This document shows positions 2 to 27,668 of a DNA stretch of 64,000 bases, one piece after another. Origin of the DNA: Spirochaetia bacterium (GTDB lineage: Bacteria > Spirochaetota > Spirochaetia > UBA9216); assembly GCA_963675665.1 (NCBI GenBank), contig OY776510.1, positions 1,920,001-1,984,000 on the forward strand, read 5' to 3'. The notes under the pieces are model-generated. The model was not told the origin of the DNA and did not search any database. It saw only the letters and a program-made list of their open reading frames with translations. Each line of letters begins with the position of its first letter. The first letter of the stretch is position 1. The position numbers were made by a program, and so were the translations under genes.

Positions 2-730
2 TCGTGTACGCTCGATACTGCATGCGCAATTCTTGAAGCGTGCTGGAAAGCCTTGTCCCAGGTGCTTCCCGATCGTGTGCCAGCCGGGTGGAATCGCTGG
101 AACGGCCCCGCAATAGCCGGAGTAGACCCGAGAAGCGAAAACTTCTACGTTATGTTCGCATTCAACGGTTTCGGCGGCGCCGGGGGGATGTCCGGAATGG
201 ACGGCAGGCATTATATCGGCGATGGAATTGATCTGGGCGGCCTGATTGCTCCGAATATCGAAACCAACGAGTCTGATTATCCCCATATAACCGAGTTCAA
301 TGAATTCACGACGGACAGCTGCGGAGCCGGAAAATTCCGCGGCGGATGCGGCGCCGGTTACAGGATTAAAATGTACGATGATGAACCGAACCTGGTAATG
401 TTCGGCGACGGCCGTGATAATCCTCCGTATGGTTTGTTCGGAGGCGGTGAAGGCAGCCCCAATATGGCTTGGCTTAATCAGGGGCTTGAAAACGAACGGC
501 TGTTGAAATCTAAAGAGTCGGTAAACCTGCGTTCAGGCGAGACCTACACATCGTATCCTTCCGGAGGCGGAGGATGGGGTAACCCTGCCGAGCGTGATCC
601 GGAACTTGTACGTCTTGATGCGATGAATGAAATAATCAGCCTCGAGGCTGCCGGGAAGATCTATAAGGTTGCTCTTGAAGGTGAAGACTTGCATATAAAC
701 GAAGAAAAGACTGCTGAATTACGGAGGTGA
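2..730 (+). CDS. Hydantoinase B/oxoprolinase family protein (5'-truncated by window edge)
   Basis: Frame is open from position 2 (SCTLDTACAILEA...). Motifs GGAGG..GMDG, DSCGAGKFRGG, PPYGLFGG and SGGGGWGNP..RDPE.V..D are typical of HyuB/OplA C-termini. Confidence 0.9.
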   Translation, partial: SCTLDTACAILEACWKALSQVLPDRVPAGWNRWNGPAIAGVDPRSENFYVMFAFNGFGGAGGMSGMDGRHYIGDGIDLGGLIAPNIETNESDYPHITEFNEFTTDSCGAGKFRGGCGAGYRIKMYDDEPNLVMFGDGRDNPPYGLFGGGEGSPNMAWLNQGLENERLLKSKESVNLRSGETYTSYPSGGGGWGNPAERDPELVRLDAMNEIISLEAAGKIYKVALEGEDLHINEEKTAELRR

Positions 731-1866
731 GTGTGGAAATAAAAAAAATAGCTGTTCTGGGATCCGGAAACGGAGGGTTTATGAGCGCAGCCGATTTTGC
801 CCTGCAGGGATATGAAGTTGCCATCTACTCCAGGAATGACGAGAAGATCGCAGGGGTTAGGGCTAACGGGGGGATAGATCTTCTGGACATTGACTCAAAC
901 CCGACGGGGCAGAAGGCTGAAATTGCGTGTGCTACCTCCGATATTAAAGAAGCGCTGAAAGGCGCCCAGGTAGTTCTGAACCCGGTTCCAATTTTTGCAA
1001 GCAGTTTTTATGCTGAAAAATGCGCGCCGTATGTTGAAGACGGGCAAATCTTTGTCAGTCTGGGCAAGGGCGGAGCTTCACTTATATGGGCAAAGGTGTT
1101 CAAGGAAAAGGGTGTTTCCAAAAAGGTCTATCTTGCCGATACAAACACTCTGCCGTACGGTGCGTCCAGGATAGATGATCATTCCGTCAGGCTGGAAAAC
1201 AGAACACAGAATCTTCTTGCGGCCTGTTTTCCCGGAAAGGACATCAAATATGTTGGAGAGATACTTGAACAACTCTATACTCCGGACAACTACGATATCC
1301 GCTACGGGCAGAATGCCATAGATTCAATTCTTGTCGATTACAATGCTATAACGCATACGCCCCCGATGATCTGCAATGCGGCACGGATAGAAACCGGAGA
1401 TCCGGATTTTCATCTTTTCGGTAAAGATGAAAACACCCCGGCAGTTGTAAGGCTGATCGAAAGAATTGATCGCGAGCGTATGGCTATAGGAAAAGCACTC
1501 GGGCTGGAGCAGCACACACTTGAAGAAGAAATCCTGATGGTTAAGTGGAACCCGAATCAGGAAGATTATATTCTTCCGCTGTATGATGCCATCCACACCC
1601 CGTTTCTGGAAGTATGCGAAGGTCCGTTCAAACTTGAAACCAGGCACCTGACCGAGGATATACCTTACGGCCTTGTAACATATTCATCTCTCGGAAAGAT
1701 GCTTGGAGTGCCTACGCCGATATCGGATGCTGTAACTGCTATTGCCGGGGTTCTGCTCGATCGCGATTTTACAGCAAAAGGGAGGACTGTTGAACAGCTG
1801 GGAATTAATCCTTCATGGACAACTGAACAGCTGAAGCAATATCTTGAAGACGGAACAATAGAATAA
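727..1866 (+). CDS. NAD/NADP-dependent octopine/nopaline (opine) dehydrogenase family protein
   Basis: Rossmann motif IAVLGSGNGG, TNTLPY, N...H.PPM..NA.RIE, D.ERMAIG.ALG and RHLTEDIPYGL. GTG start overlaps the previous stop (GTGA). Confidence 0.88.
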   Translation: MSVEIKKIAVLGSGNGGFMSAADFALQGYEVAIYSRNDEKIAGVRANGGIDLLDIDSNPTGQKAEIACATSDIKEALKGAQVVLNPVPIFASSFYAEKCAPYVEDGQIFVSLGKGGASLIWAKVFKEKGVSKKVYLADTNTLPYGASRIDDHSVRLENRTQNLLAACFPGKDIKYVGEILEQLYTPDNYDIRYGQNAIDSILVDYNAITHTPPMICNAARIETGDPDFHLFGKDENTPAVVRLIERIDRERMAIGKALGLEQHTLEEEILMVKWNPNQEDYILPLYDAIHTPFLEVCEGPFKLETRHLTEDIPYGLVTYSSLGKMLGVPTPISDAVTAIAGVLLDRDFTAKGRTVEQLGINPSWTTEQLKQYLEDGTIE

Positions 1867-1915
1867 TTCATTAAAACCCCCGCCTTCCATAGCGGGTATT
1901 ATAGAGGAGACGTAA

Positions 1916-2920
1916 ATGTCACATTTGAAAGGAAGAGATTTAAAAGGTATTCTTGATGTTAACCGCGATGAAGTTGAATTTATTCTCGATGTAGCAAAAG
2001 AGCTTAAACGGGAACAGAAGATCGGCCGGCCTCATCGATTACTGGAGGGGAAAAGTCTCGGCGGAATTTTTGAAACACCCAGTACCCGTACGAGTATAAG
2101 TTTCGAAACGGCAATGACGCATCTCGGAGGGCATATGATCTGGCTTGACTCAAGCCGACTCTGGGTAGGCGATGCTGCCGAAGAAGACTGGCGCGATACG
2201 GTTAAAACCATCGACAGGTTCCTCGACGGAGTTGCATACCGCGTAGGCGCCGCCCGCGAGAGGCTGGACAACGCCGCCGAATATGCCGAGATTCCTTTTA
2301 TTAACGCTTCCTGCCCCGTAGAACATCCCTGCCAGGCTTTTGCAGATCTTTTAACTATGCGCGAAAAGAAAGGCGACACCAAAGGGGCAAAAGTTGCATT
2401 TATGTGGGGTTATCGCGATGCCAACCCGCCTGCGGGCCTTACCAATTCGCTTATGATGATGGCCGGCACAATGGGTTTCGACATCTCAGTTGCCTGTCCC
2501 CCAGGTTATGAGCCGCATCCCGATTATATGAAAGAAGCCATGGCACGATCTGAAAAATCAGGCGGAAGCGTAAAGGTTGTTCACGATTATGAATCTGCAG
2601 CAAAGGACGCCGATTTTATCAACGTCTATTCATGGGTTTCTCCGGAAGTCTGGGCAAAGAGCGTAGCAAACCATTTTCAGGCAGATCCGGCATTTCAGGC
2701 AGAGAAGCTGAAACTCAAGGATAAATGGTGTGTTACCCAGGATGTAGTGGATATGGCGAAGAAGGATGTTATGGTAATGCATCCCATGCCGATTGCGCGT
2801 AATGAAGAAGTAACGAACGAGGTTCTTGATTCCGAAAAATGCATAATCTACGATGTAGCCGAGAACAGGCTGCACACCGAGAAAGCAATACTTGCCCTGC
2901 TTCTCGGAGGATACCGATAG
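1916..2920 (+). CDS. Ornithine/aspartate carbamoyltransferase-family protein, divergent substrate site
   Basis: Carbamoyl-phosphate motifs STRT.SFE and HPCQ..ADLLT, C-terminal AENRLH. Has HPMP instead of HCLP and NVYSWVS instead of YTDVWVSMG. Confidence 0.88.
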   Translation: MSHLKGRDLKGILDVNRDEVEFILDVAKELKREQKIGRPHRLLEGKSLGGIFETPSTRTSISFETAMTHLGGHMIWLDSSRLWVGDAAEEDWRDTVKTIDRFLDGVAYRVGAARERLDNAAEYAEIPFINASCPVEHPCQAFADLLTMREKKGDTKGAKVAFMWGYRDANPPAGLTNSLMMMAGTMGFDISVACPPGYEPHPDYMKEAMARSEKSGGSVKVVHDYESAAKDADFINVYSWVSPEVWAKSVANHFQADPAFQAEKLKLKDKWCVTQDVVDMAKKDVMVMHPMPIARNEEVTNEVLDSEKCIIYDVAENRLHTEKAILALLLGGYR

Positions 2921-2935
2921 GTAGAAGGATATATC

Positions 2936-4258
2936 ATGTCTGAAAAGATCAGGATTGTTCATTTCATCAATCAGTTTTTTGCGGGGATCGGCGGTGAAGA
3001 GGAAGCCCATGTCGGCGTATCCTTCGAAGACGGTCCCAAAGGCCCCGGCACGGGTATAGAAGCAAAACTTTCCGATTCAGCTGAAGTGGTACGCACTATC
3101 TGGTGCGGGGATAACTATATAAACGAGAACCAGGAAGAAGCGTCGGCCGAGATTGAAAAACTGATTACGGATGCCAAACCGGATGTTGTGCTGGCAGGAC
3201 CGGCGTTCAATGCAGGCCGGTACGGACTTGCATGCGGGCTTGTAGCAAAAATGTGCCGGGACAAATTGGGAATTCCGGCAATCACCGGAATGTTTCCGGA
3301 GAACCCGGCTGTGGAAATCTACAAAGAAAGTGTCTATATAATGCCTGTAGGCGGAACTGCTGCGGGAATGCGCAAGGCCATACCTATGCTGTCCGAAAAG
3401 GTCCTGAAGCTCGGCCGGAAAGGCAAGCTTGGAAATGCTCTTGAAGACGGGTATATTCAGTCGGGTTACCGGTATAATGAGCTGGTTGAAAAGCCTGCAG
3501 CCGTACGGGCGCTCAATATGCTGATGCAGAGGCTGTCCGGGGAAGACCCGATAACCGAAGTACCGAGACGGACGTTTGAACAGGTTGATCCTGCACCCCC
3601 TGTCGGCAATATGAAGGAGGCTGTTATAGCTATAGTTACCGGCGGCGGAATGGTCCCGGCGGGAAATCCCGATAAACTGAAACAAGCCTTTGCCGATGCC
3701 TTCGGTGTTTACTCGATAGAGGGTCTGGATGAACTTCCTGCCGGAGAGTTCAAGGGAATTCACGGCGGGTTTGATTCAAGCTATGTAGATGAAGATCCGG
3801 ACAGGGTCGTTCCGCTCGACGCGCTTCGGGAGATGGAAAAAGAGGGAACATTTAAAAAGCTGGTTAATGAATATTTTGCGCTTTGCGGAATAGGGACAAA
3901 TGTAGCGATGAGTAAAAAGCTTGGAGCAGAGGTGGCCGAGGAGCTTAAAAGGAGACAGGTAAGCGCGGCAATCTACACCTCTACATGAGGCACCTGTACC
4001 CGTTGCGTGTCAACGATGCAGAAAGAAGCTGAGCGGGCAGGGATACCGTCGGCTTTGATTACAGCTATCCCGTCAGTTGCAAGTTCGGTCGGCGTAAGCC
4101 GAATCATAACAGGCGGAGGCATTCCCTATCCAGCAGGAGATCCGACTCTGCCGGCAGACAGAGAGATGGAGTTTCGTAAACGACTGGTAGAAAAGGCTCT
4201 TGAAGCCGTCAGTACAGCCGTCGACGGGCCGACAATTTTCAATGTCAGCATAGCCTAG
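2936..4258 (+). CDS. grdB: Glycine/sarcosine/betaine reductase selenoprotein B (GrdB/F/H family), Sec at in-frame TGA 3986-3988, 440 aa
   Basis: N-terminal HFINQFFAGIGGEE, GPAFNAGRYG and HGGFD...EDPDRVVPLD. Read-through gives TST-U-GTCTRC, joining ORFs 2936..3988 and 4007..4258 in frame. Confidence 0.95.
3994..4021 (+). promoter_or_regulatory. Candidate bacterial SECIS of grdB
   Basis: Hairpin ctgta-cc-cgttg-[cgtgt]-caacg-a-tgcag starts 6 nt after the UGA. The apical loop contains GU. Confidence 0.6.
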
Positions 4259-4274
4259 GCAATCGGAGGTGGGA

Positions 4275-5585
4275 ATGAAACTTGAACGAGGTTATTTCGA
4301 AATAAAGGATCTGGTCTTCGGCGGCAGCCTGTCGCTGAAAGACGGGGTCCTGACAATTGAGAAAAAGGAACTTGAAAATTATCTTCTTTCCGAGGATGAA
4401 AACGGAAATATAGAGCACATAGAGCTGGAAATCGTCAGGCCCGGCGAGAACACGCGAATTGTGCATATTCTTGATACGGTTATGGCGGGCGTCAAGGTTG
4501 AGGGCGAGAGCGAATTTATGCCCGGACAGATGTGTGATCCTGTAATAGCCGGAAACGGCAAAACCCATTTAATAACAAACCTGGCGATCATGGAATGTGC
4601 CGAACTTCCCTGGGCGGGAAAATCAGCGCTGTTATATCCCCGTGATGCCATTGTCGATATGATGGGGCCGGCTGCCGGTTATTCTCCGTTTTCGGAAACT
4701 TTTAACCTGATCCTGAAAATGGATATGGTTAAGGATTCGTCTGACATCGAATACGACAATTCCGTCAGAAACGCGGGCATAAGATGCGCCAGAAAGATAG
4801 CGGAACTGCTTCGCGATCTTGTACCTGATCGAAGTGAAGTCTTTGATTTTGATCAGGAGGTTGACCCTGAATTGCCCAAAATTGCATATGTAACCCAATG
4901 CCAGAACCAGGGCGTATATTCGAACACATTTTTGTACGGACATGAAGTCTGGAACATTGTTCCGACATATCTGAATCCTACTGAAATGATGGACGGGTGT
5001 GTTGTCAGCGGAAATTATGTATGGCCCTGTTTCAAGGTGCCGTCCTGGATACAGGCAAATATGCCCGCAGTAATGGAGCTTGCACGCGGCCACGGCGTAA
5101 AGTGGAATTTCACCGGTGTGGTTTTTGACCGCGGACATAATGATTCTCATTTTCTTAAACAGAGAGCCGCAAGTCTTGCTTCAAACCTGGTGCGCAGGCT
5201 GGGGGCCGACGGTGTTCTTATCTCGTGGGAAGGCGGCGGAAACGCAGCTACGGATGCAATGCTTACCCTTCAGACTTGCGAAAAGTGGGGGATAAAAGCC
5301 GTGCCCTATACTTTCGAGTTCGGCGGTCCGGACGGCCGCGAGGGGATTCTGCTTGTGGATGATGTTCCGGAGGCTGAATATGTTGTATCAACCGGTTCGA
5401 TAGAGAAGCCGACGACTATTCCCGCTGTTGATCGCGTTGCCGGCGGCGACTGCCTGCGGCTGAGGAAAGAAACAGGGGGAGAGCCTGAACCGGCTGATGT
5501 TGAGCGAACGCTTGATGTAATCACGGCGTTCTACTGCGGTGCAAACCAGAGCGGAATAGGGAGACTGGCGGGAGTTCCCTATTAA
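4275..5585 (+). CDS. Glycine/sarcosine/betaine reductase component B proprotein (GrdE/G/I family), lacking the cleavage Cys
   Basis: MKLE.G.F.IKD..FG, IVRPGE..RI, DM.GPAA.YSPFS, PT.LNP.E.MDG.VVSGN and GADGVLIS.EGGGN...D. ATG at 4275 follows RBS GGAGG. Confidence 0.9.
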   Translation: MKLERGYFEIKDLVFGGSLSLKDGVLTIEKKELENYLLSEDENGNIEHIELEIVRPGENTRIVHILDTVMAGVKVEGESEFMPGQMCDPVIAGNGKTHLITNLAIMECAELPWAGKSALLYPRDAIVDMMGPAAGYSPFSETFNLILKMDMVKDSSDIEYDNSVRNAGIRCARKIAELLRDLVPDRSEVFDFDQEVDPELPKIAYVTQCQNQGVYSNTFLYGHEVWNIVPTYLNPTEMMDGCVVSGNYVWPCFKVPSWIQANMPAVMELARGHGVKWNFTGVVFDRGHNDSHFLKQRAASLASNLVRRLGADGVLISWEGGGNAATDAMLTLQTCEKWGIKAVPYTFEFGGPDGREGILLVDDVPEAEYVVSTGSIEKPTTIPAVDRVAGGDCLRLRKETGGEPEPADVERTLDVITAFYCGANQSGIGRLAGVPY

Positions 5586-5858
5586 AGTTGAGCAATTGGT
5601 TATTGCTCAACTTTAATCTAAAGTAATTATGACAACAAACGGGTGTCATAATTACTTATATAGGTCTAAGGAAGAAAACTGAAACTGAAGTTTCAGTTTT
5701 CAGATTGGCGATTGGTTATCACCAAGTTTCAATTTTAAGTTTAATAACACCCTTCGGTTGTTATTAAACTTCATGAAGCAATGCCGGGAAAAATTAAAAG
5801 TTGAAACTTTTAATTTTAACTTAAACAAATGCTGAAAAAAGTCAAAAGCTTGACTTTT
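5581..5858. repeat. Array of seven consecutive inverted repeats (hairpins) between grdE-like and grdA
   Basis: Stems: 5581-5617 (16 bp, loop TGGTT), 5621-5657 (14 bp), 5674-5701 (12 bp, loop TGAA), 5705-5725 (8 bp with 1 mismatch, loop TGGTT), 5737-5771 (13 bp), 5790-5817 (12 bp, loop TGAA), 5837-5858 (9 bp). Confidence 0.9.
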
Positions 5859-5933
5859 GGTTTTTAAATCCGTCGGTTAATCGGCCATGTTATGGTTCTC
5901 CGGCGGTTGTAATATTTTTTGGAGGTGATTCGG

Positions 5934-6392
5934 ATGCTTGAGGGCAAAAAGGTAATTATTCTCGGTGATCGCGACGGAATCCCGAGCGGCGCAATTGAAA
6001 ACTGCCTTTTGGGAAAAGAGCTGGAAATTATATTTTCCGTTACCGAGTGTTTTGTCTGAACTTCTGCCGGTGCAATGGATCTGGAGAACCAGAAGCGGGT
6101 GAAGGAGCTTGCTGAAAAACACGGGACTGATAATCTGTTTGTTCTGATAGGAGGAGCAGATCCCGAAGCAAGCGGTCTTGCTGTAGAGACAGTTATGGCC
6201 GGAGACCCGGCTTTTGCCGGTCCATTGACAGGAGTCCAGTTGGGACTTCCTGCATATCATATAGTAGAGCCTGAAATAAAGGCTGAAATTGATCCGACAG
6301 TTTATGAAGAAAACATCGGGATGATGGAAATGGTTCTTGATGTTGATGCTATAATTGAAGAAGTATCGACAGTCAGAAAGGATTGTTCATGA
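5934..6392 (+). CDS. grdA: Glycine/sarcosine/betaine reductase selenoprotein A, Sec at in-frame TGA 6057-6059, 152 aa
   Basis: RBS GGAGG and ATG 5934 give [24 protein letters not shown]...[21 protein letters not shown], in frame with ORF 6075..6392 ([21 protein letters not shown]). Confidence 0.96.
6061..6096 (+). promoter_or_regulatory. Candidate bacterial SECIS of grdA
   Basis: cttctg (6061-6066) pairs with cagaag (6091-6096), with an inner ccgg/ctgg stem around an atgga-containing loop, directly 3' of the UGA. Confidence 0.5.
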
Positions 6393-6703
6393 TCGAATTA
6401 GACAAGACAAACTATGACGAAACAGTAAAATCAGCAGAGAAACTGCTTGTCATTGATTTCTGGGGCACGACATGTGCCCCCTGCATGGCCCTGAAACCCT
6501 TTATCGAAAAGTACGAGAAGGAATTCGAGGGCAAAGCGGAATTCGCCGAAGTAAATATTCAGGGAAACCGACGGCTTGCGATACGCGAACAGGTTATGGG
6601 GCTTCCAACGATACTATTTTTTAAAAACGGAGAAAAAATCGACGAGCTTGTAGTTGATTTTTCCCCGCCTCAGCTTAAAAAAAAGATTGAGGAGCTTGTA
6701 TAA
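6389..6703 (+). CDS. trxA: Thioredoxin, Grd-associated type
   Basis: [11 protein letters not shown] active site and [25 protein letters not shown] 6389 overlaps the grdA stop (ATGA). Confidence 0.9.
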
Positions 6704-19149: not shown

Positions 19150-19164
19150 GGTTGAAAATGAACA

Positions 19165-19192: not shown

Positions 19193-19215
19193 AAATTTTA
19201 TTCAGGAAGGTGTAA

Positions 19216-20760
19216 GTGGAATCCTATCTTGGCATGCAGAACATCTGTAAAACGTTCAGTACAACGGGGCTTAAAGCAAACGACAATGTGAACCTTAATG
19301 TAAAAAAAGGGGAAATACACGCGCTTGTAGGTGAAAACGGCGCCGGAAAGACAACTCTGATGAATATCCTTTACGGGATAGAGCAAATGGATTCCGGGGT
19401 TGTCAGGCTCAACGGCAGGGATGTGAAGATTAACAATCCGATTGATGCAAACCGCCTGGGGATAGGAATGGTCCATCAGCACTTTAAACTAATAAACGAG
19501 TTTACTGTTGCCCAGAATGTGGTTTTGGGAATTGAGCCTGTTAAAGGGGCTGTTTTTTTTGATAACAGGAGGGCAGAGAAGGCTGTAGCCGATGTTATTG
19601 AAAAAAATCATTTCCATATTTCACCGGACGCCAGAATATCAGAGCTTAGCGTAGGACAGATGCAGCAGGTAGAAATAATAAAAATGCTCTACCGAAAGGC
19701 CGAACTGCTGATTCTTGATGAACCCACGTCGGTTCTGACGGAACAGGAGATACAAAGACTATTTGAAACCCTTACCGGACTTATCAAGCAGGATAAAACG
19801 ATTATTATTATCACTCATAAGCTTACCGAGGTTAAGGATATATCGGATCGCATTACCGTAATGAGGCGGGGTCAGGTTGTTGCTGAAAAGGATACGGCCG
19901 ATGTAGATGAAAGCGAAATATCCAGGCTAATGGTAGGAAAGCGCGTGCTGTTTGATTTCGGACAGAAGGTGGACGGCTGCAGGGACGCTGTTCTCAGTCT
20001 TGAAGATGTCACTATCAGCAAAAAAAAGCAGGGACGGCTTGTGCTTGATAGCATTAATTTCAGCGCTTCGACATGCGAGATTGTAGGGATAACCGGGGTA
20101 GCCGGAAACGGTCTTACCGAACTTGAAGATGTTATTGCAGGTTTGCAGAAAATCAGCAGCGGAAAGATATACCATAATGACAGTGATATTACTAATATTT
20201 CACCACGGGAGCGGCGTGACAAGGGCCTTGCGTATGTACCCACAGACAGGCTCAACCGCGGTTCAAGCCTTGAAACTTCAGTAAAGGAAAACCTTATATT
20301 GACCAGTCATCATGAGTTTATGAAATCGGGCGGAATTTTTGACGAAGAAAAGATTACACGTCACAGCAAGCGGCTTATTTCAGAATACATGATTGACGGG
20401 TCGTCCGATGTTGCAATCGGGACATTGTCGGGAGGCAATATCCAGAAAGTTATTCTGGCGCGTGAACTTGACCGGGTTAAGGATTTTGTTTTGTTCTCGG
20501 AACCGACCTGGGGGCTTGATGTTGCAAGCAGCGAGTTTATATACGAAAAGATGCTTGAAATGAGGGCGAGGGGCGTTGCAGTAGTTCTGATATCATCCAA
20601 CATAGATGAAATCCTGTCGCTTTCCGATACAATAATTGTTTTGTACCGGGGCAGAATTGTAACCAGGAAGAACGCCGGATCTGAACTTACGCGTGAGGAG
20701 ATAGGCGAGTATATGCTGGGTATCAAGGATGATTTTAAGGGAGACGCAGATGAAAATTAA
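19216..20760 (+). CDS. ABC ATP-binding protein, nucleoside/riboflavin (NupA/RfuB-like), two NBDs
   Basis: GENGAGKT, GMVHQHF, LILDEPT, THK and LSGGNIQK..PTWGLDV. Confidence 0.92.
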   Translation: MESYLGMQNICKTFSTTGLKANDNVNLNVKKGEIHALVGENGAGKTTLMNILYGIEQMDSGVVRLNGRDVKINNPIDANRLGIGMVHQHFKLINEFTVAQNVVLGIEPVKGAVFFDNRRAEKAVADVIEKNHFHISPDARISELSVGQMQQVEIIKMLYRKAELLILDEPTSVLTEQEIQRLFETLTGLIKQDKTIIIITHKLTEVKDISDRITVMRRGQVVAEKDTADVDESEISRLMVGKRVLFDFGQKVDGCRDAVLSLEDVTISKKKQGRLVLDSINFSASTCEIVGITGVAGNGLTELEDVIAGLQKISSGKIYHNDSDITNISPRERRDKGLAYVPTDRLNRGSSLETSVKENLILTSHHEFMKSGGIFDEEKITRHSKRLISEYMIDGSSDVAIGTLSGGNIQKVILARELDRVKDFVLFSEPTWGLDVASSEFIYEKMLEMRARGVAVVLISSNIDEILSLSDTIIVLYRGRIVTRKNAGSELTREEIGEYMLGIKDDFKGDADEN

Positions 20761-21790
20761 CCGCAGCGAAATGTTTATCTCATTTTCAGCGCTTCTAATC
20801 ACTCTCGGCGCGGCATTTCTGGTTATGCTTTTAATGATTTTTCTGATGAGCGAGACACCGGGTGAAACTATCTGGTTCTTTTTTGCCGGGCCGCTGACAA
20901 ACAGATATTACCTGGGAAACATGTTTAACGCCGCCATCCCCCTGATCCTGACCGGGCTTGGGATTTCGTTTGCATTCAGGGCATCAATGTTTAATCTCGG
21001 GGGCGAAGGCCAGGTATACGCCGGCGGATTGGCCGCCACAGCTGTCTGCCTTGCAATGCCAGCCGCCGCAGGTTTTTTCGGAATCACCGTCAGCCTTCTG
21101 GCGGCAGTTGTTACCGGCTCCGTGATTGCCGGGCTCTCAGGATTTTTCAAGATGAAATGGAGAACGGATGAACTGATATCATCATTTCTTATCTCAAATG
21201 CACTGATATATGTAGTTGACTTTTTCATTACGGGGCCGCTTGATGATCCTGTAAACAACCTGCTTACTACCGGTAAAATTTCCGAGCAGTTTTGGTTTAT
21301 GAAGATCTTTTTACCGTCAAATCTTGATATCAGCATCATTTTTGTAGTTTTAATCGCTGTTCTGGCCTTTTTCTATTTATTCAGAACCCATCAGGGCTAT
21401 GAAATGAGAATGTGCGGTCTTAATTCGGAATTTGCACGGTACGGGGGGATTAATGTAAAAATCTATATGATTCTGCCGATGCTGTGGAGCGGCGCTTTTC
21501 ACGGTCTTGCCGGCGCATTATCAATTCTGGGTACGCACCATATGTGCCTGAAAGGTTTTTCCGGAGGAATGGGCTGGAACGGAATTGCCGTTGCGCTTAT
21601 AGCCAAGAACAATCCTGTGGCTGTAATACCGGCGGCGTTGTTTTTTGCATACCTGGAGGCCGGGGCAAAGTCAGCAATGATTAATGCCGATGTTACAATT
21701 GAAATAGCGTCCGTTGTCCAGTCGGTTGTATTCTTTTTAATAACGGCCCAGGCCATATATAATTTTGTCAGATACAGGAGTGCAAGATGA
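20750..21790 (+). CDS. ABC permease (NupB/RfuC-like)
   Basis: Hydrophobic. FNLGGEGQ, G.EMR..G.N.EFARYGG and GWNGIAVALIA.NNP. Confidence 0.9.
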   Translation: MKINRSEMFISFSALLITLGAAFLVMLLMIFLMSETPGETIWFFFAGPLTNRYYLGNMFNAAIPLILTGLGISFAFRASMFNLGGEGQVYAGGLAATAVCLAMPAAAGFFGITVSLLAAVVTGSVIAGLSGFFKMKWRTDELISSFLISNALIYVVDFFITGPLDDPVNNLLTTGKISEQFWFMKIFLPSNLDISIIFVVLIAVLAFFYLFRTHQGYEMRMCGLNSEFARYGGINVKIYMILPMLWSGAFHGLAGALSILGTHHMCLKGFSGGMGWNGIAVALIAKNNPVAVIPAALFFAYLEAGAKSAMINADVTIEIASVVQSVVFFLITAQAIYNFVRYRSAR

Positions 21791-22689
21791 ACGGCAATGA
21801 GTTCACAATCCCTCTGATACATAATTCAATAAATATAATGACTCCGTTCCTGCTTGCCGGAATCGGCGGCCTGATGACCGAGCTTGCCGGAATGCTTAAT
21901 ATCGCGCTTGAAGGTCTGATCCTTATAGGTGCATTTTTCAGCGTAATTTTCGCAGCTGCCACGGGAAGCCTGTTTCTGGGACTGCTGCTTGGAATTCTTA
22001 TGACAGTGCTTGTTTCATATGTGTTCGGAGCAATTACCCTTTACCTCAAGGCAAATGTATTTATAACCGGGCTGGCAACAAACCTTCTTGCCGGGGGACT
22101 TACAGCTGTTTTGTCTTTCTATTTTTTCGGAACAAAGGGAAACCTGATGTTTAACGATCTCCCTGATCTGCCGCGGCTGAATGTTCCCGCACTTCATGGA
22201 ATCCCGGTGATTGGAGATATTCTTTTCGGTCATAATGTTCTTGTTTACATAGGATGGGTGATTGTAATAATTGCGTGGATAGCCATTTATAAGACCGCGT
22301 TCGGTTTCAGACTTCGGGGGACGGGAAGTAATCCGAAAGCCATGATAGCACTGGGATTGAATCCGAAAAACTACCAGATGATTGGAATCCTTATTTCCGG
22401 GTTTACCTGCGGAATTGCGGGGGCTGTGCTTACGCTTAACCTGGGAGCGTATGTTCCGAACATATCGGCAGGAAGGGGATGGATTGCACTGGTTGTAATA
22501 TACCTCGGCGGGAAAACACCCTTCGGTATTCTCGGGGCTGCTTTTGTGTTCGGACTTGCCGAGAGCCTGTCCAATTACGCGCAGGGGTTTACGGACATAC
22601 CGGCGGATTTCATCCTGGCTTTTCCGTATATAATAACTGTTGTTGCGATGGTGATAATGTCGGTTGTCCGGCATCGGCGGGAGGAATAG
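21787..22689 (+). CDS. ABC permease (NupC/RfuD-like)
   Basis: E.AG.LNIALEG, T.FG.RLR..G.NP, GRGWIAL and FPY..T. Confidence 0.9.
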   Translation: MNGNEFTIPLIHNSINIMTPFLLAGIGGLMTELAGMLNIALEGLILIGAFFSVIFAAATGSLFLGLLLGILMTVLVSYVFGAITLYLKANVFITGLATNLLAGGLTAVLSFYFFGTKGNLMFNDLPDLPRLNVPALHGIPVIGDILFGHNVLVYIGWVIVIIAWIAIYKTAFGFRLRGTGSNPKAMIALGLNPKNYQMIGILISGFTCGIAGAVLTLNLGAYVPNISAGRGWIALVVIYLGGKTPFGILGAAFVFGLAESLSNYAQGFTDIPADFILAFPYIITVVAMVIMSVVRHRREE

Positions 22690-22720
22690 AAGCGTTTTAA
22701 AGTAAAACATCATGTTGTGC

Positions 22721-22785
22721 TTGATAAACCGGAAACTCTAACGTATAATAAACCTAACGTTATACGTAAGAAAAAACAACGTAAG
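22721..22785 (+). promoter_or_regulatory. Sigma70 promoter with candidate MerR-type operator
   Basis: TTGATA(22721)-17 bp-TATAAT(22744). Imperfect palindrome ctaacgt-tat-acgtaag at 22754-22770, with extra half-sites at 22738 and 22779. Confidence 0.6.
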
Positions 22786-22791
22786 GTGTGT

Positions 22792-23235
22792 ATGTACAGG
22801 ATAGGTGATTTGGCAAAGCTTGCGGACGTAACCGTAAGAACCATTCGATATTATGAAGAACTGGGGCTTATTGAGGCCCCGAACAGAAAGGACAGCGGTC
22901 AGAGAAGGTATTCCGAGAAGGATTTAATCTATCTGAAACGAATCATCCAGCTTAAAAGCTACGGGCTGACGCTCGTTGAGATTAAAGAGATTATCGATCT
23001 CGGGAAAACGGACCCTTCCGGTGAAATGCGTAGAATCAGGCTGTTGAAACATTACAGAGAAAAGATGAGCGATGCCATGACCAGGAAAGAGAATCTTGAG
23101 AGTTATATTGATGAGCTTAAATGGCATGTAGAACAGCTTGAGGAGGTCTCTGACTTTCAGGGCTGCCCGGGTCCGGCCTGCGCGGACTGCAAGTTTCTTG
23201 AGAAGTGCCGTTTTGCGGTTAGAGAGGAGGACTAA
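22792..23235 (+). CDS. MerR-family transcriptional regulator with C-terminal 4-Cys cluster
   Basis: MYRIGDLAKLADVTVRTIRYYEELGLI...R.YS. C-terminus CPGPACADCKFLEKC. ATG 22792 follows AAGGTG. Confidence 0.9.
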   Translation: MYRIGDLAKLADVTVRTIRYYEELGLIEAPNRKDSGQRRYSEKDLIYLKRIIQLKSYGLTLVEIKEIIDLGKTDPSGEMRRIRLLKHYREKMSDAMTRKENLESYIDELKWHVEQLEEVSDFQGCPGPACADCKFLEKCRFAVREED

Positions 23236-24257
23236 TGAAATCAGCTGTACTGGTTGATGCCGGTAAAATAGAAATACAGGAAGTTCCTGTTCCCGAATGC
23301 GGAGATAATGACGTACTTGTAAAGATCGCGTACTGCGGAATCTGTACCCTGGAGCAGCGGCTGTTCAGCGGCGATATGAAAATATATTACCCGATAGTGC
23401 CGGGGCATGAGGCGTCAGGCACTGTTGAGGCGGTCGGCAGCGGGGTCAAGTCGTCGATAAAGCCCGGGGACCGGGTTGCTCTTGATATGGTCTACCGCTG
23501 TCATCAATGTTATTACTGCCGCACCGGGCAATCCAATTTATGCGAGAACCGTTTCAGTAAGGGTATCAAGCCTCTTGGGGGGTTTTCGCAATATGTGGCT
23601 GTTGAACCTGCAAGGATCTTCCAGGTCGGCGACAGCCTGCCGCTTGAAGAAGCAGCCTTTGTTGAACCTGTTGCCTGTTGTCTTCGTTCGCTTAAAAAAC
23701 TTAATGTAACTGTCGCCGAAGATGTGCTGATTGTCGGAGCCGGACCGATGGGGCTGATGCATCTTCAGGTTGCGCTTGTTATGGGTGCAAGGGTATTTGT
23801 TTCCGATGTTGATGAATCAAGACTGAAAACGGCCGGGCAGATGGGAGCCGACGGGATAATAAACCCGCTGAAACAGGATGTGGCGGGTGTGCTCAAAGCC
23901 CAAACAGACGGACGGGGTGTTGATGCCTGTGTTGTTACCAGCCCGGCGCTTCCCGCGCTGGATTCTGCGTTTCAGTCGATACGAAAAAACGGCAGGATTA
24001 ATATTTATACTGCATATATGACGGATAAACCGGAAATGCCTATTGATATGAATACGCTTCACAGGAATGAAGTTCTTGTAACCGGTACGGAAGGCCGTAC
24101 CGAGTTTGATTTTCAACAGGCCGCAAGACTGCTTTCTTTCGGAAAAATAAACATTAAGCCGTTGATAAGCAGAATTGCAGGTTTCGGGGATTTGGAAGAC
24201 GGTATAAAAGCCGCTTCAGGAACCGGGACCCAGCGTGTCCTTTTGAGGCTTAACTGA
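23235..24257 (+). CDS. Zn-dependent medium-chain (polyol) dehydrogenase
   Basis: CGICT, GHEASG, C..C.YC..G....C and GAGPMG. Confidence 0.9.
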   Translation: MKSAVLVDAGKIEIQEVPVPECGDNDVLVKIAYCGICTLEQRLFSGDMKIYYPIVPGHEASGTVEAVGSGVKSSIKPGDRVALDMVYRCHQCYYCRTGQSNLCENRFSKGIKPLGGFSQYVAVEPARIFQVGDSLPLEEAAFVEPVACCLRSLKKLNVTVAEDVLIVGAGPMGLMHLQVALVMGARVFVSDVDESRLKTAGQMGADGIINPLKQDVAGVLKAQTDGRGVDACVVTSPALPALDSAFQSIRKNGRINIYTAYMTDKPEMPIDMNTLHRNEVLVTGTEGRTEFDFQQAARLLSFGKINIKPLISRIAGFGDLEDGIKAASGTGTQRVLLRLN

Positions 24258-25717
24258 TGATAATTGCATTTGATATAGGAACGACAGTTCTGAAGGCTGC
24301 GCTTTTAACTGAAGACGGAAAATTCAGGGGACTGACATCAAGATCGATGTCACTCTGCGATACCGTTGAAAGCGGCTGTTATGAGGCGGAATCCCGCGAG
24401 TGGATAGAGGCTTTCGGTTCTGCCGTAAAGGAACTGCTGCAAATCCCAGGGGCGGAAAGTTTGAGGGCCGTCGTGATAAGCGGAAACGGTCCGACCCTTG
24501 TGCCGGTAGCGTCCGACGGGACCTTCCTTGAACCTGTGATGTCGTGGATGGATCGCAGGGGTACTGAACAATCCCGGAAAATCGGGAGCGTGCAGGACTT
24601 TGTAATCGACCCGACATTCTATCTTCCGAAGGCTATGTGGATAGCAGACAACCTGCCCGAAGTTTATAAACAAACGAAATACTTCCTCTCATGTCCTGAA
24701 GCTATGGCTTTCTGGCTGACCGGAGAGGCTGTAACGATTCTTCCCGGGCTGAAATTTGAAAAATATTTCTGGAGTGATACTCTCCTCGAGGCTGTAGGGA
24801 TGGACAAAACCAAATTTCCCGGTTTTGTGAAGCCCGGGCATATAACAGGAAAGATCAGCCGTAGCGGGGCCGTCGAATCAGGGCTGCCCGAAGGGCTGCC
24901 GGTAGTATCCGCAGGCCCTGATTTTGTTGTAACCCAGCTAGGCACTGCGGCTGTATATCCGGGACGGGCCTGCGACAGGGCCGGGACCTCGGAAGGAATT
25001 AACCTGTGTACAGAAAAGTATGTGGAAGATCCGAGGCTTATGGGATACGGACATGTTGTTGAGCCGTGGTTCAATATTTCAGGGATTATCTCCACATCGG
25101 GAAAAGCCTTTGAATGGGCGAAACAGCAGTACGGCGATTTTGATGATGATTATGAAAGTCTTCTGAAAGCTGCAAAAACTGCATCTCCCGGGGCCGACGG
25201 GCTGATTTTCCTGCCTTACCTCGCAGGCGAGCGGGCCCCGCACTGGGACCCTTCCGCACGCGGCGCTTTTATCGGTCTCGGTCTGCACCACGGGCGGGCG
25301 GAAATGATCAGGGCCGTACTGGAGTCGATCGGATTTGCAATGCGTGACGTTATTGATGTGATGGCGGAAAACGACGGCCGTGTCGACGAGTTGAGAATCA
25401 CAGGGGGTCCGTCAAAAAGTCCGCTTTGGAACCAGATAAAAGCCGACGTAACCGGCCGGAGACTGCTGGTCCCCGAATCAACCGAATCGGAACTTCTGGG
25501 TAATCTGGTTATTGCTCTCAGGGCACTGGGCGATACCGATGAACTGGCCGACACGGCAGATCGAATTGTAAGGATCAGGGATGTCTATGAACCCGATCCG
25601 AACAGGCATGCTCTTTATTCGGAATATTTTGAAATATACAGGGATTCGTACAAGAGACTGAAGGATATATTCAGCTCACTGCAGAAAGCAGTCCCCGGCA
25701 GGGGGAAAGGAGAATAG
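24257..25717 (+). CDS. FGGY-family carbohydrate kinase
   Basis: DIGTTVLKA, W.D.RG, FLPYLAGERAPHWD..ARGAFIGL, TGGPSKS.LWNQIKADV. Confidence 0.92.
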   Translation: MIIAFDIGTTVLKAALLTEDGKFRGLTSRSMSLCDTVESGCYEAESREWIEAFGSAVKELLQIPGAESLRAVVISGNGPTLVPVASDGTFLEPVMSWMDRRGTEQSRKIGSVQDFVIDPTFYLPKAMWIADNLPEVYKQTKYFLSCPEAMAFWLTGEAVTILPGLKFEKYFWSDTLLEAVGMDKTKFPGFVKPGHITGKISRSGAVESGLPEGLPVVSAGPDFVVTQLGTAAVYPGRACDRAGTSEGINLCTEKYVEDPRLMGYGHVVEPWFNISGIISTSGKAFEWAKQQYGDFDDDYESLLKAAKTASPGADGLIFLPYLAGERAPHWDPSARGAFIGLGLHHGRAEMIRAVLESIGFAMRDVIDVMAENDGRVDELRITGGPSKSPLWNQIKADVTGRRLLVPESTESELLGNLVIALRALGDTDELADTADRIVRIRDVYEPDPNRHALYSEYFEIYRDSYKRLKDIFSSLQKAVPGRGKGE

Positions 25718-26506
25718 ATGAATTTCGGAAAAACAGTCAGAATGAATAATATATTCAGAAAGGATACCGGCAGATCGGTAATCGTTGCCATTGATCACGG
25801 TGGAATAGCCGGGCCCATGAAGGGTATCAATGAGCCTGCAAAACTGATTCAGGCCTGTGTCGACGGAGGCGCGGATGGGGTTCTCACAACCAGGGGGTTT
25901 CTGAGAGCGGCTGAAGATGGGTTTGACCGAAACCTTTCAATTATCCTTAGACTGACCGGCGGATTCACAGTTCTCGGGGGGATGTTTGAAGAAGAGATGA
26001 TTACCTCTGTTGAAACCGCGCTTCGTTACGGTTCGGCCGGCGCCGCTGTTACCGTAAAATTCGGTCACCAGCGGGAAGGTCATTTTACCAGGCAGGCGTC
26101 GCTTGTTGCAGACAGCTGTGAGGAATGGGGGCTTCCGCTTATGGTTGAAGCAATGGCAAAAGGAAAGGATCTGAAAGCCACTGATCCGAAGGGGATAAAA
26201 CTCGCTGCCCGCGCAGCAGCCGAGATAGGGGCCGATATGGTTAAAACATATTATACCGGTGATCCTGACTCATTTGCCGAAGTTGTTGAAGGCTGCATGG
26301 TTCCTGTTGTGATCCTCGGCGGGGAAAAAAGCGATTCAATCCGTGATGTTTTTGACGATGTGTACTATTCGATTCAGGCAGGCGGTTCAGGTATAGCAAT
26401 CGGCCGGAATATATGGCAGCATGAAAATGTAAAAGCGATGGTTGAAGCCATGTGCGGACTCGTTCATGAAGGATGGTCTGTGGATCAGGCAATGGCCCAT
26501 ATATAA
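25718..26506 (+). CDS. Class I aldolase, DhnA/LsrF/ADH-synthase family
   Basis: AIDHG, AR.AAEIGADMVKTYY (Schiff-base Lys), PVVILGG and GRNIWQH. Confidence 0.9.
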   Translation: MNFGKTVRMNNIFRKDTGRSVIVAIDHGGIAGPMKGINEPAKLIQACVDGGADGVLTTRGFLRAAEDGFDRNLSIILRLTGGFTVLGGMFEEEMITSVETALRYGSAGAAVTVKFGHQREGHFTRQASLVADSCEEWGLPLMVEAMAKGKDLKATDPKGIKLAARAAAEIGADMVKTYYTGDPDSFAEVVEGCMVPVVILGGEKSDSIRDVFDDVYYSIQAGGSGIAIGRNIWQHENVKAMVEAMCGLVHEGWSVDQAMAHI

Positions 26507-26531
26507 ACTGAAGAAAATAAGGCAGGTTTGG

Positions 26532-27668
26532 ATGCCCTGGATTACTTTTATGGCTAACGGTCTGTGGGTCCTTGTTATAGGACTTATGGGACCGTCGGTT
26601 CCGTTTATTATCAATGAATTCTCAATTGATTATTCTCAGGCCGGGTTAATATTTACTCTGCTTTCAATCGCATCTTTCCTGGGCACCTTCGCCGGCGGCT
26701 GGATTTCGGATTACCGCTACCGAAAGTTTTTCTGGATGCTTTTTCTGGTTATGCTGACCGCCGGACTGGTGTTTTTCGGGTTTGCCGCCTCTTTTTCAAT
26801 GATTCTCGTAATTGTATTTGTAATGAGTTTATTCGGCAGTCCAATCGGTGCGGTAGGGCAGAGCATCATGCTTCAGATGTTTCCGGAAAAGAGAAGCTCC
26901 TATCTGTCGCTGTCTACTATGTTCGCCGCCGTCGGAAGTTTTCTTGCGCCGATATTGATTTCTCTTGCCTGCCTGACAGGTTTCGGATGGCGCGGAGCTT
27001 TTTATGCAGCTGCGTTAATAGCACTGGTTCTGTTTACACTTGTATCTTTTTCCGGATTGCCGAAACCGCCGGTCCATCAGGGCGGAGCATTAAGCGTGTT
27101 CAGGCTGTTCGGCGATCGAAGGGTCCTTTTTGCCGGGATTATGATTTTTTTAAGCGTCGGTCTTGATTTGGGATTCTCGTATTGGCTTGCTGAATATTTT
27201 GTAAGTAAAGTTGGAACAGCGGCAGAGTTTTCAGGATTTGCTGTCGGCTGTTATCTTGCCGGAGTCATCTCCGGGCGTTTTGCGAACTCCAGAAAGCCTT
27301 TATCAATCGGTTATGGTAAGCTGTGCGGAACAGGTCTTGTGCTTGCCGCGGTATGGCTTGTATTGTTTCTGAATGTTGAACTTGTATCGATGAAGCTTGT
27401 CTTTTGTTTTCTGTACGGATTATGTATTGCGCCGACCTTTCCTTCAATGATGGCTGTGGGAACGGGGTTTTATCCTAAGCGTTCAGGAGCGGTAACTGCG
27501 GTTCTTTTTTCAATGATGTCTTTAAGCGGAGCAGTATTCCCGGTAGTTATCGGTTCCATCGGCCAGGTAATGGGGATAGAAAAAGCATACTATGCGCTTA
27601 TTCTGATAATGGTTCCTGTTCTCGCAGGACTGCTTTTCAGCGGAAAACTTACCCGGCAGCCTTCCTGA
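26532..27668 (+). CDS. MFS transporter
   Basis: About 12 hydrophobic segments, motif GWISDYRYRK. Start uncertain. The 3' end overlaps selB by 20 bp. Confidence 0.85.
   Translation: MPWITFMANGLWVLVIGLMGPSVPFIINEFSIDYSQAGLIFTLLSIASFLGTFAGGWISDYRYRKFFWMLFLVMLTAGLVFFGFAASFSMILVIVFVMSLFGSPIGAVGQSIMLQMFPEKRSSYLSLSTMFAAVGSFLAPILISLACLTGFGWRGAFYAAALIALVLFTLVSFSGLPKPPVHQGGALSVFRLFGDRRVLFAGIMIFLSVGLDLGFSYWLAEYFVSKVGTAAEFSGFAVGCYLAGVISGRFANSRKPLSIGYGKLCGTGLVLAAVWLVLFLNVELVSMKLVFCFLYGLCIAPTFPSMMAVGTGFYPKRSGAVTAVLFSMMSLSGAVFPVVIGSIGQVMGIEKAYYALILIMVPVLAGLLFSGKLTRQPS

Follow-up and report, generated by a model that had tools for sequence, protein, structure and literature searches.

No genes were linked to the anaerobic breakdown of riboflavin (vitamin B2) until 2026, when a study of gut Lachnospiraceae did so without biochemistry (Quiles Perez et al., J Bacteriol 2026, PMC13492142). 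According to that study, C. scindens anaerobically converts riboflavin to lumichrome, and a gene neighborhood termed finA-K ("flavin induced neighborhood") is induced. The genes of this neighborhood specify a kinase resembling RibF, an aldolase of class I, alcohol and aldehyde dehydrogenases (the latter abbreviated ALDH), and the Grd-like proteins FinHI. The authors proposed that FinBCD free a triose and that FinHI then cut a two-carbon unit. F. fissicatena, which lacks finGHI, makes hydroxyethylflavin, and the authors list Muricomes intestini among the bacteria with the long version of the cluster (PMC13492142). Here we describe a related locus from a bacterium of the class Spirochaetia, located at positions 2..27668 of a 64,000-nucleotide window (contig OY776510.1, positions 1,920,001 to 1,984,000; G000:C1:1920001-1984000 in our genome set), the window being the whole stretch of DNA that was analyzed. 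With a probability of roughly 60%, we consider this locus to be a modular anaerobic flavin-catabolic operon, that is, a spirochete variant of the fin riboflavin-degradation neighborhood. Judged by its genes, the operon most likely serves to take up riboflavin and to cut its side chain, with the aid of a selenium enzyme, into two energy-yielding pieces. It may also serve to dismantle the flavin ring, and it would extend the pathway proposed for the Lachnospiraceae. A term search of the available text of PMC13492142 found no mention of a spirochete, Treponema, selenium, acetyl phosphate, xanthine or xanthine dehydrogenase, or carboxymethyl or carboxymethylflavin. Riboflavin catabolites matter for vitamin cross-feeding, and according to the abstract of the same study they are relevant to MAIT-cell (mucosal-associated invariant T cell) and inflammatory signaling.

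Two further described pathways are relevant for comparison. In aerobic riboflavin catabolism (PMC12746152), the riboflavin lyase RcaE acts first and lumichrome is degraded subsequently. This route resembles the one considered here in having lumichrome as an intermediate and in the hydrolytic attack on the pyrimidine ring, but it requires O2 (flavin monooxygenase, P450) and removes the ribose in one step, and no such enzymes are encoded at the spirochete locus. The reductive uric-acid/2,8-dioxopurine pathway comprises XdhD, YgfK or the PydA-like UacX, SsnA, HyuA, YgeW, YgeY and YgeX (bioRxiv 10.1101/2025.05.19.654654, 10.1101/2025.04.24.650524).

The original prediction had described about 25 co-oriented, mostly abutting genes, and we indeed found 25 genes on the plus strand at 2..27668, which belong to a unit extending further upstream. 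The gaps between most neighbors are below 30 nucleotides or the genes overlap; wider gaps are present only at 1866/1916, 5585/5934 (348 nucleotides), 17995/18061 and 19149/19216. The start of the window cuts the unit, which begins about 3.9 kb upstream of it with genes for a GntR/FCD regulator (-3852..-3130; negative coordinates lie upstream of the window start) and HyuA (-3099..-1024). HyuA is followed by HyuB, an enzyme of the opine dehydrogenase family, an ornithine carbamoyltransferase (OTC)-like carbamoyltransferase, GrdB- and GrdE-like proteins, GrdA, thioredoxin and a GrdC-GrdD fusion. The middle part encodes a ferredoxin, an aldehyde:ferredoxin oxidoreductase (AOR), a protein of 95 amino acids, the FAD, Fe-S and Mo subunits of a xanthine dehydrogenase-like enzyme (Xdh), an SsnA-like amidohydrolase and a PydA/PreA-like reductase. 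The 3' part encodes a BMP-family binding protein, an ABC ATPase, two permeases, a MerR-type regulator, a polyol dehydrogenase of the MDR family, an FGGY kinase, a class I aldolase and an MFS transporter. All coordinates given below for members of this unit refer to the plus strand.

The Grd-type enzyme connects the locus to the fin system. The GrdB-like selenoprotein B (2936..4258; PF07355, E = 1e-133) contains a selenocysteine (Sec) at residue 351, encoded by the TGA codon at 3986..3988 and read through as ...TSTUGTCTRC..., and when homologous loci are aligned, 90 of 90 have a stop codon at this site. The GrdE-like substrate subunit (4269..5585; PF09338, E = 1e-112) is the only PF09338 protein of the genome, which encodes a sole Grd B-type complex. 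Selenoprotein A, GrdA (5934..6392; PF04723; 167.5 bits with model NF040748, cut-off 130), has its Sec at residue 42, where the TGA lies inside CFV-U-TSAGAMD and all 33 homologous loci have an aligned stop codon. The set is completed by a thioredoxin (6383..6703; PF00085, E = 3e-22) and by protein C, which forms acetyl phosphate and is present as a fusion of 854 amino acids (6703..9267) with a GrdC part (residues 7-482; NF040746, 619.6 bits, cut-off 450) and a GrdD part (residues 503-851; NF040747, 391 bits, cut-off 350). In the Bacillota-type locus L023, GrdC and GrdD are two genes for proteins of 533 and 387 amino acids. The genes for the GrdE-like protein and GrdA are separated by a hairpin-rich spacer of 348 nucleotides (5586..5933) with many short perfect hairpins. 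At the same position, loci L006 and L032 carry a gene for a thioredoxin reductase-like protein of about 390 amino acids (PF07992), and L009 and L017 have open reading frames (ORFs) of similar size; the window operon appears to have lost the thioredoxin reductase-like gene.

Like the glycine, sarcosine and betaine reductases and the fluoroacetate reductase FarE, this complex has Sec in GrdB and GrdA, a thioredoxin and a protein C scoring above the cut-offs, and acetyl phosphate would be the expected product. It differs from the glycine, sarcosine and betaine reductases by the GrdCD fusion, by substrate subunits that stay below all specific cut-offs (GrdF 383 versus 800, GrdB 355 versus 602, GrdH 327 versus 775 and GrdG 254 versus 780 bits), and by a tyrosine in place of the pyruvoyl cysteine. 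Canonical GrdE paralogs from four genomes all read MDGA-(I/V/L)-SGN-C-VSAC, and the two of these four that were scored reached 650-661 bits with the GrdG/E model. In contrast, MDGC-..-SGN-Y-VWP is the motif of the window protein, where the tyrosine is Y250, and of every fin-type protein. Among 80 rows of the SGN-Y clade, 77 have tyrosine at this position (76 SGNY, one GGNY) and none has cysteine. The loss of the pyruvoyl cysteine was thereby confirmed. Which of the canonical cysteines carries the pyruvoyl group was deduced from the pyruvoyl peptide of C. difficile GrdE, whose first residue is number 242 and which includes another, alkylated cysteine (PMC9908766). This peptide fits CVSAC, and the pyruvoyl cysteine was tentatively assigned to SGN-C. 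We also considered C244 of the window protein (within DGC; position 242 in homologs of 436 amino acids) as pyruvoyl cysteine and rejected it, because the canonical paralogs have alanine there and cysteine at SGN-C. C244 (codon 4998..5000) lies six residues upstream of the pyruvoyl position and is a cysteine in 70 of 80 fin-type rows; alanine is present in all seven canonical or type-B paralogs.

A maximum likelihood tree of GrdE (quick search with SH-aLRT support) was calculated from 87 rows, with a small outgroup of seven rows from four genomes, three type-B and four canonical. The 80 SGN-Y rows, including that of the window, formed one clade with a support of 100, separated from the type-B and canonical paralogs by a branch of 1.02. 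Within this clade, 19 spirochete rows including the window and 59 rows mostly from Bacillota were each grouped with a support of 100. The window proteins share 49% (GrdE) and 47% (GrdB) identity with the Fin pair of M. intestini, and the GrdE-like protein falls into the same fully supported clade as the FinI homolog. A conventional reductase of glycine, sarcosine or betaine for Stickland-type energy metabolism, next to which the other genes would stand incidentally, would be in line with a sole B-type complex accompanied by complete GrdA, thioredoxin and GrdCD. We regard it as highly improbable, since the enzyme lies below every substrate-specific cut-off and in a clade apart from the canonical paralogs, lacks the pyruvoyl cysteine needed for glycine and sarcosine chemistry, and has an orthologous gene that co-occurs exactly with that of the opine dehydrogenase, in the same 6 of 41 genomes. 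A route from creatinine or N-methylhydantoin to sarcosine, considered in view of the hydantoinase, the carbamoyltransferase and Grd, was dropped because this Grd has no pyruvoyl cysteine and belongs to the fin clade. Amadori compounds, opines and carboxymethyl-lysine were also considered as substrates; no evidence for them turned up, and no further search was made.

The second link to flavins is the importer. The binding protein (18061..19149), a BMP-family lipoprotein, matched the riboflavin-bound structure of TP0298 (RfuA) of Treponema pallidum (4IIL) with E = 2.2e-77 and 263 bits, and PnrA (2FQW) with E = 1.4e-19. In PMC3573665, residues Y27, N82, Y157 and W189 (TP0298 numbering) are described as ligand contacts which differ in PnrA and are predictive of riboflavin binding. 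A HMMER alignment to 4IIL showed the window protein to have the same amino acids at these four positions and at S24, and all five were kept in 34 of 34 cluster-associated homologs from the fetched loci. By these comparisons the binding protein is of the RfuA type and not of the PnrA type; the genome has five BMP genes, and no other one among them is RfuA-type. Downstream follow an ABC ATPase (19216..20760) and two permeases (20729..21790 and 21787..22689), an equivalent of RfuBCD. The set thus resembles RfuABCD of T. pallidum in the structure match, the four discriminating contacts, and the succession of one ATPase and two permeases. It differs in being embedded in a presumed catabolic operon, whereas the T. 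pallidum importer serves vitamin acquisition. Both the RfuA-like importer and the Grd without pyruvoyl cysteine had been claimed in the original prediction and were borne out by these analyses.

The remaining genes of the presumed side-chain pathway encode three sugar-type enzymes and an aldehyde-oxidizing system. The zinc-dependent MDR polyol dehydrogenase (23235..24257; PF08240, PF00107) shares 39% identity with the FinD homolog of M. intestini. The FGGY-family kinase (24257..25717; PF00370, PF02782) reached 254 bits with the XylB model (cut-off 380), and its nearest structures are gluconate kinase and xylulokinase. The aldolase (25718..26506; PF01791; PRK07226, 260.6 bits, cut-off 241) is a class I enzyme of the DhnA/MJ0400 type, with 2QJG as best (E = 3e-60) and LsrF as second-best structure match (E = 5e-36). 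Kinase-aldolase pairs acting on ketose-1-phosphates, such as those for fuculose and rhamnulose or LsrK/LsrF, yield dihydroxyacetone phosphate (DHAP) and an aldehyde. The window pair is similar in that its FGGY kinase stands beside an aldolase from which such products would be expected, but this aldolase is a class I enzyme of the MJ0400 type, and its presumed substrate is a heterocycle-bound polyol chain that would need a prior dehydrogenase. AOR (9672..11495; PF01314, E = 7e-113; PF02730, E = 2e-61) is preceded by a ferredoxin-like protein with two [4Fe-4S] clusters (9268..9672; Fer4 families), which in relatives is always encoded directly upstream of AOR.

For comparison with the fin neighborhood, a pattern scan of one genome per species was used, which gave 80 loci with GrdE relatives. 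Among the 62 fin-type Grd loci outside the spirochete-type clade, a RibF-like kinase was encoded in 35, the aldolase in 34, the MDR enzyme in 36 and ALDH in 53, and kinase, aldolase and MDR enzyme occurred together in 32. The locus of M. intestini (L046) has the order aldolase, MDR, SorC, APC permease, RibF-like kinase, ALDH, GrdB-like and GrdE-like protein. The window locus shares with the fin system the SGN-Y Grd pair, a class I aldolase of the DeoC/LacD family, an MDR enzyme, a kinase, an aldehyde-oxidizing enzyme, the existence of forms with and without Grd, and the proposed logic, namely release of a triose followed by removal of the two-carbon unit from N10 to give lumichrome. The differences concern the individual components. 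No match to the flavokinase domain PF01687, and hence to FinB, was found anywhere in the genome, which is 96% complete, and the cluster has an FGGY kinase instead. ALDH (FinG) is absent from the locus, which has AOR and ferredoxin in place of an NAD-type ALDH, and RfuABCD stands in place of an APC-type permease. The window aldolase and MDR enzyme are 35 and 39% identical to FinC and FinD and belong to the same Pfam families, but are not reciprocal best hits. Furthermore, the window operon includes GrdA, thioredoxin and the fused GrdCD as well as an added ring module of six enzymes, and it has GntR and MerR regulators where fin has SorC. Individual swaps of this kind also occur among the fin-type loci, with AOR taking the place of ALDH in L071 and L074 and an FGGY kinase that of the RibF-like kinase in L082 and L122. 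Such non-orthologous replacements support the assignment of the steps. The presence of the same Grd clade in another phylum, with kinase, aldehyde-oxidizing enzyme and transporter swapped for unrelated proteins, points to an independent assembly, and this comparison strongly supports the chemistry that was proposed.

The organization of the locus in other spirochetes was analyzed next to that of its parts. The full order from GntR to MFS was found in genomes G001, G002, G004 and G005 and pieces of it in G009 and G319, with 39-93% protein identity; the same order in at least five other spirochete genomes (45-93% protein identity) rules out chance. A short form in G006 reads GntR-GrdBE-TrxB-GrdA-Trx-GrdCD-Rfu-MDR-FGGY-aldolase-MFS-Fer4-AOR, which has no ring genes and is exactly the side-chain set. 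A core-only form, Rfu-(MerR)-MDR-FGGY-aldolase, is present in G317 (same genus, 100% complete), G322, G349 and G334, and in these four genomes no match for GrdE, the opine dehydrogenase or the amidohydrolase was found at the thresholds used. In a profile panel of 41 relatives including the window's own genome, GrdE orthologs were found in six, the opine dehydrogenase in the same six, the amidohydrolase in seven and the aldolase in 13, and in nine an RfuA homolog and the aldolase ortholog were encoded on one contig at most 8 kb apart. In G317 (L113, G317:C14) and G322 (L115, G322:C1), the OTC gene located upstream of the block stands directly beside rfuA, which indicates that the about 24 kb from aminotransferase to PreA behave as one inserted or deleted block. 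An even sample of 301 genomes of the phylum was too sparse for a profile; a close GrdE ortholog occurred only in the window's genome, fin-type proteins (48% identity) in two genomes, and the remaining ones were canonical with at most 37%. Among 300 evenly sampled genomes of the class Clostridia, one of which was left unscored, the amidohydrolase matched only the seed genome at E = 1e-100.

These nested forms, found in spirochete relatives and in metagenome loci, agree with the original prediction that the modules are conserved together across genomes, but not with the central position which it gave to the selenoprotein reductase. Since the Rfu-MDR-FGGY-aldolase unit occurs without Grd and only 1 of 14 ring-module loci has Grd, this gene comparison marks Grd as an optional add-on and not as the core. 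Of the claimed undescribed flavin catabolic pathway, the side-chain part is supported by the RfuA type of the importer, the Grd clade, the synteny, and the fin study (PMC13492142), and the ring part is plausible, whereas the attribute "undescribed" no longer holds, as triose release and two-carbon cleavage were proposed in 2026. The stepwise natural variants (core, core plus Grd, and core plus Grd and ring module) predict strains that stop at formylmethyl- or hydroxyethylflavin, strains that stop at lumichrome, and strains that go further.

From the gene content, the Sec codons, the missing pyruvoyl cysteine, the RfuA-type contacts, the clade membership and the nested synteny, we infer the following substrates, products and order of steps. 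RfuABCD would take up riboflavin. The FGGY kinase would phosphorylate the ribityl chain at its 5'-hydroxyl group and the MDR enzyme would oxidize the 4'-hydroxyl group, in either order, giving a C5'-phospho-C4'-keto tail that resembles a ketose-1-phosphate. Cleavage between C2' and C3' by the class I aldolase would yield DHAP and 10-formylmethylflavin, which AOR and the ferredoxin would oxidize to 10-carboxymethylflavin. The Grd-type selenoenzyme could then take over the carboxymethyl group in a betaine-type fashion by displacing N10 as a good leaving group, and GrdA, thioredoxin and GrdCD would convert it to acetyl phosphate, leaving lumichrome or a ring-modified analog. This sequence offers a mechanistic rationale for the Grd step, namely no pyruvoyl group, N10 as leaving group, and acetyl phosphate as product. 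Betaine-type members of the family likewise have no pyruvoyl cysteine, and their substrates cannot form a Schiff base. The lack of the pyruvoyl group in the window enzyme suggests that Schiff-base chemistry is not used, which fits a substrate nitrogen unable to form a Schiff base. As Grd is optional, the ring enzymes may also act on N10-substituted flavins, and the substrate of Grd may be an N-carboxymethyl compound whose ring has been opened.

The ring module consists of enzymes whose families are known from the degradation of other N-heterocycles. The 3' part of the gene for HyuB, an ATP-dependent hydantoinase/oxoprolinase/caprolactamase B subunit, lies at 2..730 (PF02538, E = 1e-39; E = 1e-170 for the full gene starting at -1027), followed by the opine-dehydrogenase family enzyme (727..1866; PF02317, E = 4e-34; nearest structure CENDH, 1BG6, E = 6e-41). 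The carbamoyltransferase (1916..2920; PF00185, PF02729) is a non-canonical member of the OTC family, with 267.9 bits for TIGR00658 (cut-off 280.85) and 84 versus 453 and 75 versus 500 bits for the YgeW models. Its motifs STRTS, HPCQ and HPMP differ from those with which true OTCases bind ornithine. The xanthine-dehydrogenase-family Mo hydroxylase, with FAD (11789..12637), 2Fe-2S (12634..13116) and Mo (13113..15413) subunits, scored best with the pucD model (558 bits, cut-off 784) and reached 251 bits, versus a cut-off of 1102, with the XdhD-type model TIGR03313. The SsnA-like amidohydrolase of the ATZ/TRZ family (15432..16820; PF01979) obtained 253-257 bits with the SsnA models (cut-offs 444-455; 256.5 versus 455.5). 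The PreA/PydA-like flavin mononucleotide (FMN) reductase (16817..17995; PF01180 plus Fer4) has a DHO_dh domain and two [4Fe-4S] motifs, an architecture that corresponds to the one described for clostridial PydA and for UacX in bioRxiv 10.1101/2025.05.19.654654; the likeness is one by description. Elsewhere in the genome (G000:C1:3314174-3329549), three more matches of the SsnA/ATZ-TRZ type lie within 16 kb and may belong to a separate N-heterocycle locus. With 332 bits, one of them outscores the window gene on the SsnA model.

The module resembles the reductive uric-acid pathway, in which a fused uracil-type ring is dearomatized and opened by the same enzyme classes. These are a Mo hydroxylase, a PydA-like reductase with FMN and Fe-S clusters, an amidohydrolase of the SsnA family, a hydantoinase and a carbamoyltransferase, the last of which would give carbamoyl phosphate. 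This resemblance is the basis of an alternative in which functions with no relation to each other share the locus as a composite, with Rfu serving for the vitamin, the MDR enzyme, FGGY kinase, aldolase and MFS transporter for a free polyol or sugar, the ring genes as a variant of the reductive purine pathway, and Grd as an optional end module of the glycine type. It draws on the match of the first three of these enzymes, with the hydantoinase and carbamoyltransferase, to the published pathway logic, on SsnA-family genes reported in Spirochaetota in bioRxiv 10.1101/2025.05.19.654654, and on a carbamate kinase encoded elsewhere in the genome. The detailed comparison speaks against it. No component reaches the cut-off of its equivalog model, the XdhD-type and YgeW scores lying far below, the hydantoinase is of the ATP-dependent A/B type and not of the HyuA type, and YgeX and YgeY are missing from the window cluster, which has an opine dehydrogenase in their place. 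No diaminopropionate ammonia-lyase (YgeX) above the cut-off was found genome-wide (best 43.6 bits versus 274). The module thus resembles the reductive uric-acid pathway, but by its model scores it is not a member of it, and it is linked to an RfuA-type importer. Moreover, the Grd pair falls into the FinHI clade, whose members outside the spirochetes neighbor genes for RibF-like kinase, aldolase, MDR enzyme and ALDH, and in the short form it stands with Rfu, MDR, FGGY, aldolase and AOR in the complete absence of ring genes. We therefore consider a composite unlikely.

A metagenome scan anchored on the amidohydrolase yielded 78 loci. Of the 30 loci with at least 3.5 kb visible downstream of this gene, 16 have an RfuA-type gene after PreA, which, together with the flavin contacts kept in all 34 such proteins, further argues against a composite. 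Five of the other 14 are linked in a different way, L138 by ABC genes and MDR-FGGY-aldolase, L167 and L185 by ALDH and fin-type GrdBE, L179 by ALDH, and L175 by MDR-FGGY-aldolase upstream; for the remaining nine, the part that is visible contains no link of this kind. At least 6 kb upstream of Xdh were visible in 14 loci, nine of which carry ferredoxin-AOR, nine a HyuB, opine dehydrogenase or OTC-like gene, and one Grd. The tight link to an RfuA-type importer suggests that the ring module is a relative of the uricolytic enzymes and was recruited to a flavin-type ring.

In a sketch of this flavin-ring chemistry, the PydA-like enzyme would reduce the alloxazine, the amidohydrolase would open the uracil ring, and the carbamoyltransferase would free carbamoyl phosphate from the ureido group. 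HyuAB would open the quinoxalinone lactam, the opine dehydrogenase would cleave the resulting N-aryl alpha-amino acid, and Xdh would hydroxylate a ring C-H. A full-text literature search found no described pathway for anaerobic degradation of the flavin ring, for which the genes of the module are now nominated as candidates. It is conceivable, though on balance doubtful, that the 24-kb block upstream of rfuA constitutes the first anaerobic route past lumichrome and mineralizes the (iso)alloxazine ring, with HyuAB as lactamase and the opine-type dehydrogenase opening the remaining quinoxaline-type ring and with energy conserved at three points (DHAP, acetyl phosphate, carbamoyl phosphate).

The same chemistry might alternatively be directed at another N-ribityl heterocycle or flavin analog, such as 6,7-dimethyl-8-ribityllumazine, 5-amino-6-ribitylaminouracil, the deazaflavin FO or roseoflavin. 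A pteridine or uracil ring would suit Xdh and the PydA- and SsnA-like enzymes better, as these families act on purines, pteridines and pyrimidines, and the spirochete Grd clade is about 50% identical to the fin-type clade, with long branches between them. Three relatives with a separate RibF-containing short fin cluster, described below, also hint at two substrates. This explanation is nevertheless improbable in our view, since the four residues of RfuA that pack against the isoalloxazine are kept in all 34 proteins and the conversion of riboflavin to lumichrome (PMC13492142) is the only experimental anchor of the Grd clade.

Several observations weigh against a riboflavin-catabolic function of the operon. 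First, lumazine synthase (RibH, PF00885) was not found in the 96%-complete genome. Since no other RfuA-type gene is present, the cell would depend on this importer for the vitamin regardless, and the place of the importer genes might reflect only that, as the composite explanation would have it. Second, a different aldolase-MDR pair of the same genome outscores that of the window on FinC (213 versus 156 bits) and FinD (275 versus 233 bits). This pair (G000:C1:4398019-4399833) lies in an operon with SorC, FGGY, SDR (short-chain dehydrogenase/reductase), ABC transporter, aldolase, MDR, C_GCAxxG and SIS genes (L109, G000:C1:4389001-4408000). Third, a true short fin cluster is present in addition in G318, G322 and G343. 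It encodes SorC, FinC (60-73% identity to that of Lachnospiraceae), FinD (59-65%) and a RibF-like kinase, in G318 and G322 together with an APC permease. All three genomes keep the Rfu-MDR-FGGY-aldolase unit as well, in G318 and G343 with Grd and ring genes, and two systems in one genome could take different substrates. Fourth, G326 (94% complete; L112, G326:C11:19612-39000) has no MDR enzyme and aldolase at the cluster, yet Grd, ring genes, Rfu, FGGY and MFS are kept, and no aldolase ortholog was found elsewhere in this genome. Fifth, the trio of Xdh, SsnA-like and PydA-like enzymes has its counterpart in the enzymes with which the reductive uric-acid pathway begins, and Grd is absent from 13 of the 14 ring-module metagenome loci with visible upstream region, two points that the composite explanation shares. 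Finally, the energy gain would be small because riboflavin is scarce, and the C. scindens authors also discussed overflow and damage-control roles (PMC13492142). As to the distribution of the RibF-like kinase, PF01687 is present in only 7 of the 41 relatives (G316-G343 range), in six of these about 3 kb from a FinC-like aldolase, and the three fetched instances are short fin clusters.

The surroundings and minor genes of the unit were analyzed as well. Upstream of the GntR/FCD gene, a divergent class-III aminotransferase gene (-5425..-4097) is syntenic in four relatives, and it is preceded by the second OTC gene (-6441..-5446). At its other end, the operon converges with genes for SelB and SelA (27649..30742, minus strand), which function in selenocysteine insertion and adjoin the cluster in relatives too, including the Grd-less loci L113 and L116. 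The MFS transporter (26442..27668; PF07690), a candidate product exporter, is syntenic after the aldolase in L083-L086, L110, L116 and L117, and the MerR-family regulator (22717..23235; PF13411) has the same place in L083, L085, L113, L116 and L117. The ORF of 95 amino acids following AOR (11496..11783) gave no Pfam or NCBIfam match; the ORF after AOR in L071 matches ThiS (PF02597).

No Rfam match above gathering scores, and hence no FMN riboswitch, was found in the window and 17 kb upstream of it, and the counts of promoters and terminators in 1..19999 were not above those of shuffled sequences. The only standout of these scans was a strong terminator-like hairpin at 19165..19192 between the genes for the binding protein and the ABC ATPase, with a 12-bp stem including eight G-C pairs and a T-rich tail. 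Outside the operon, the window contains two minus-strand genes (32423..34240 and 54781..56610) for proteins in which an ABC-ATPase domain is fused N-terminally to a HATPase_c histidine-kinase domain, one with HisKA and the other with PAS, and both have genes for a sigma-54 response regulator and for an ABC transporter of the sugar type as neighbors. At 40343..46573, a DUF2148 ferredoxin-domain protein is followed by six dehydrogenases in a row (four MDR, one Fe-ADH and one SDR), and a glycyl-radical enzyme and its activase are encoded at 51426..54779 beside sugar ABC transporters.

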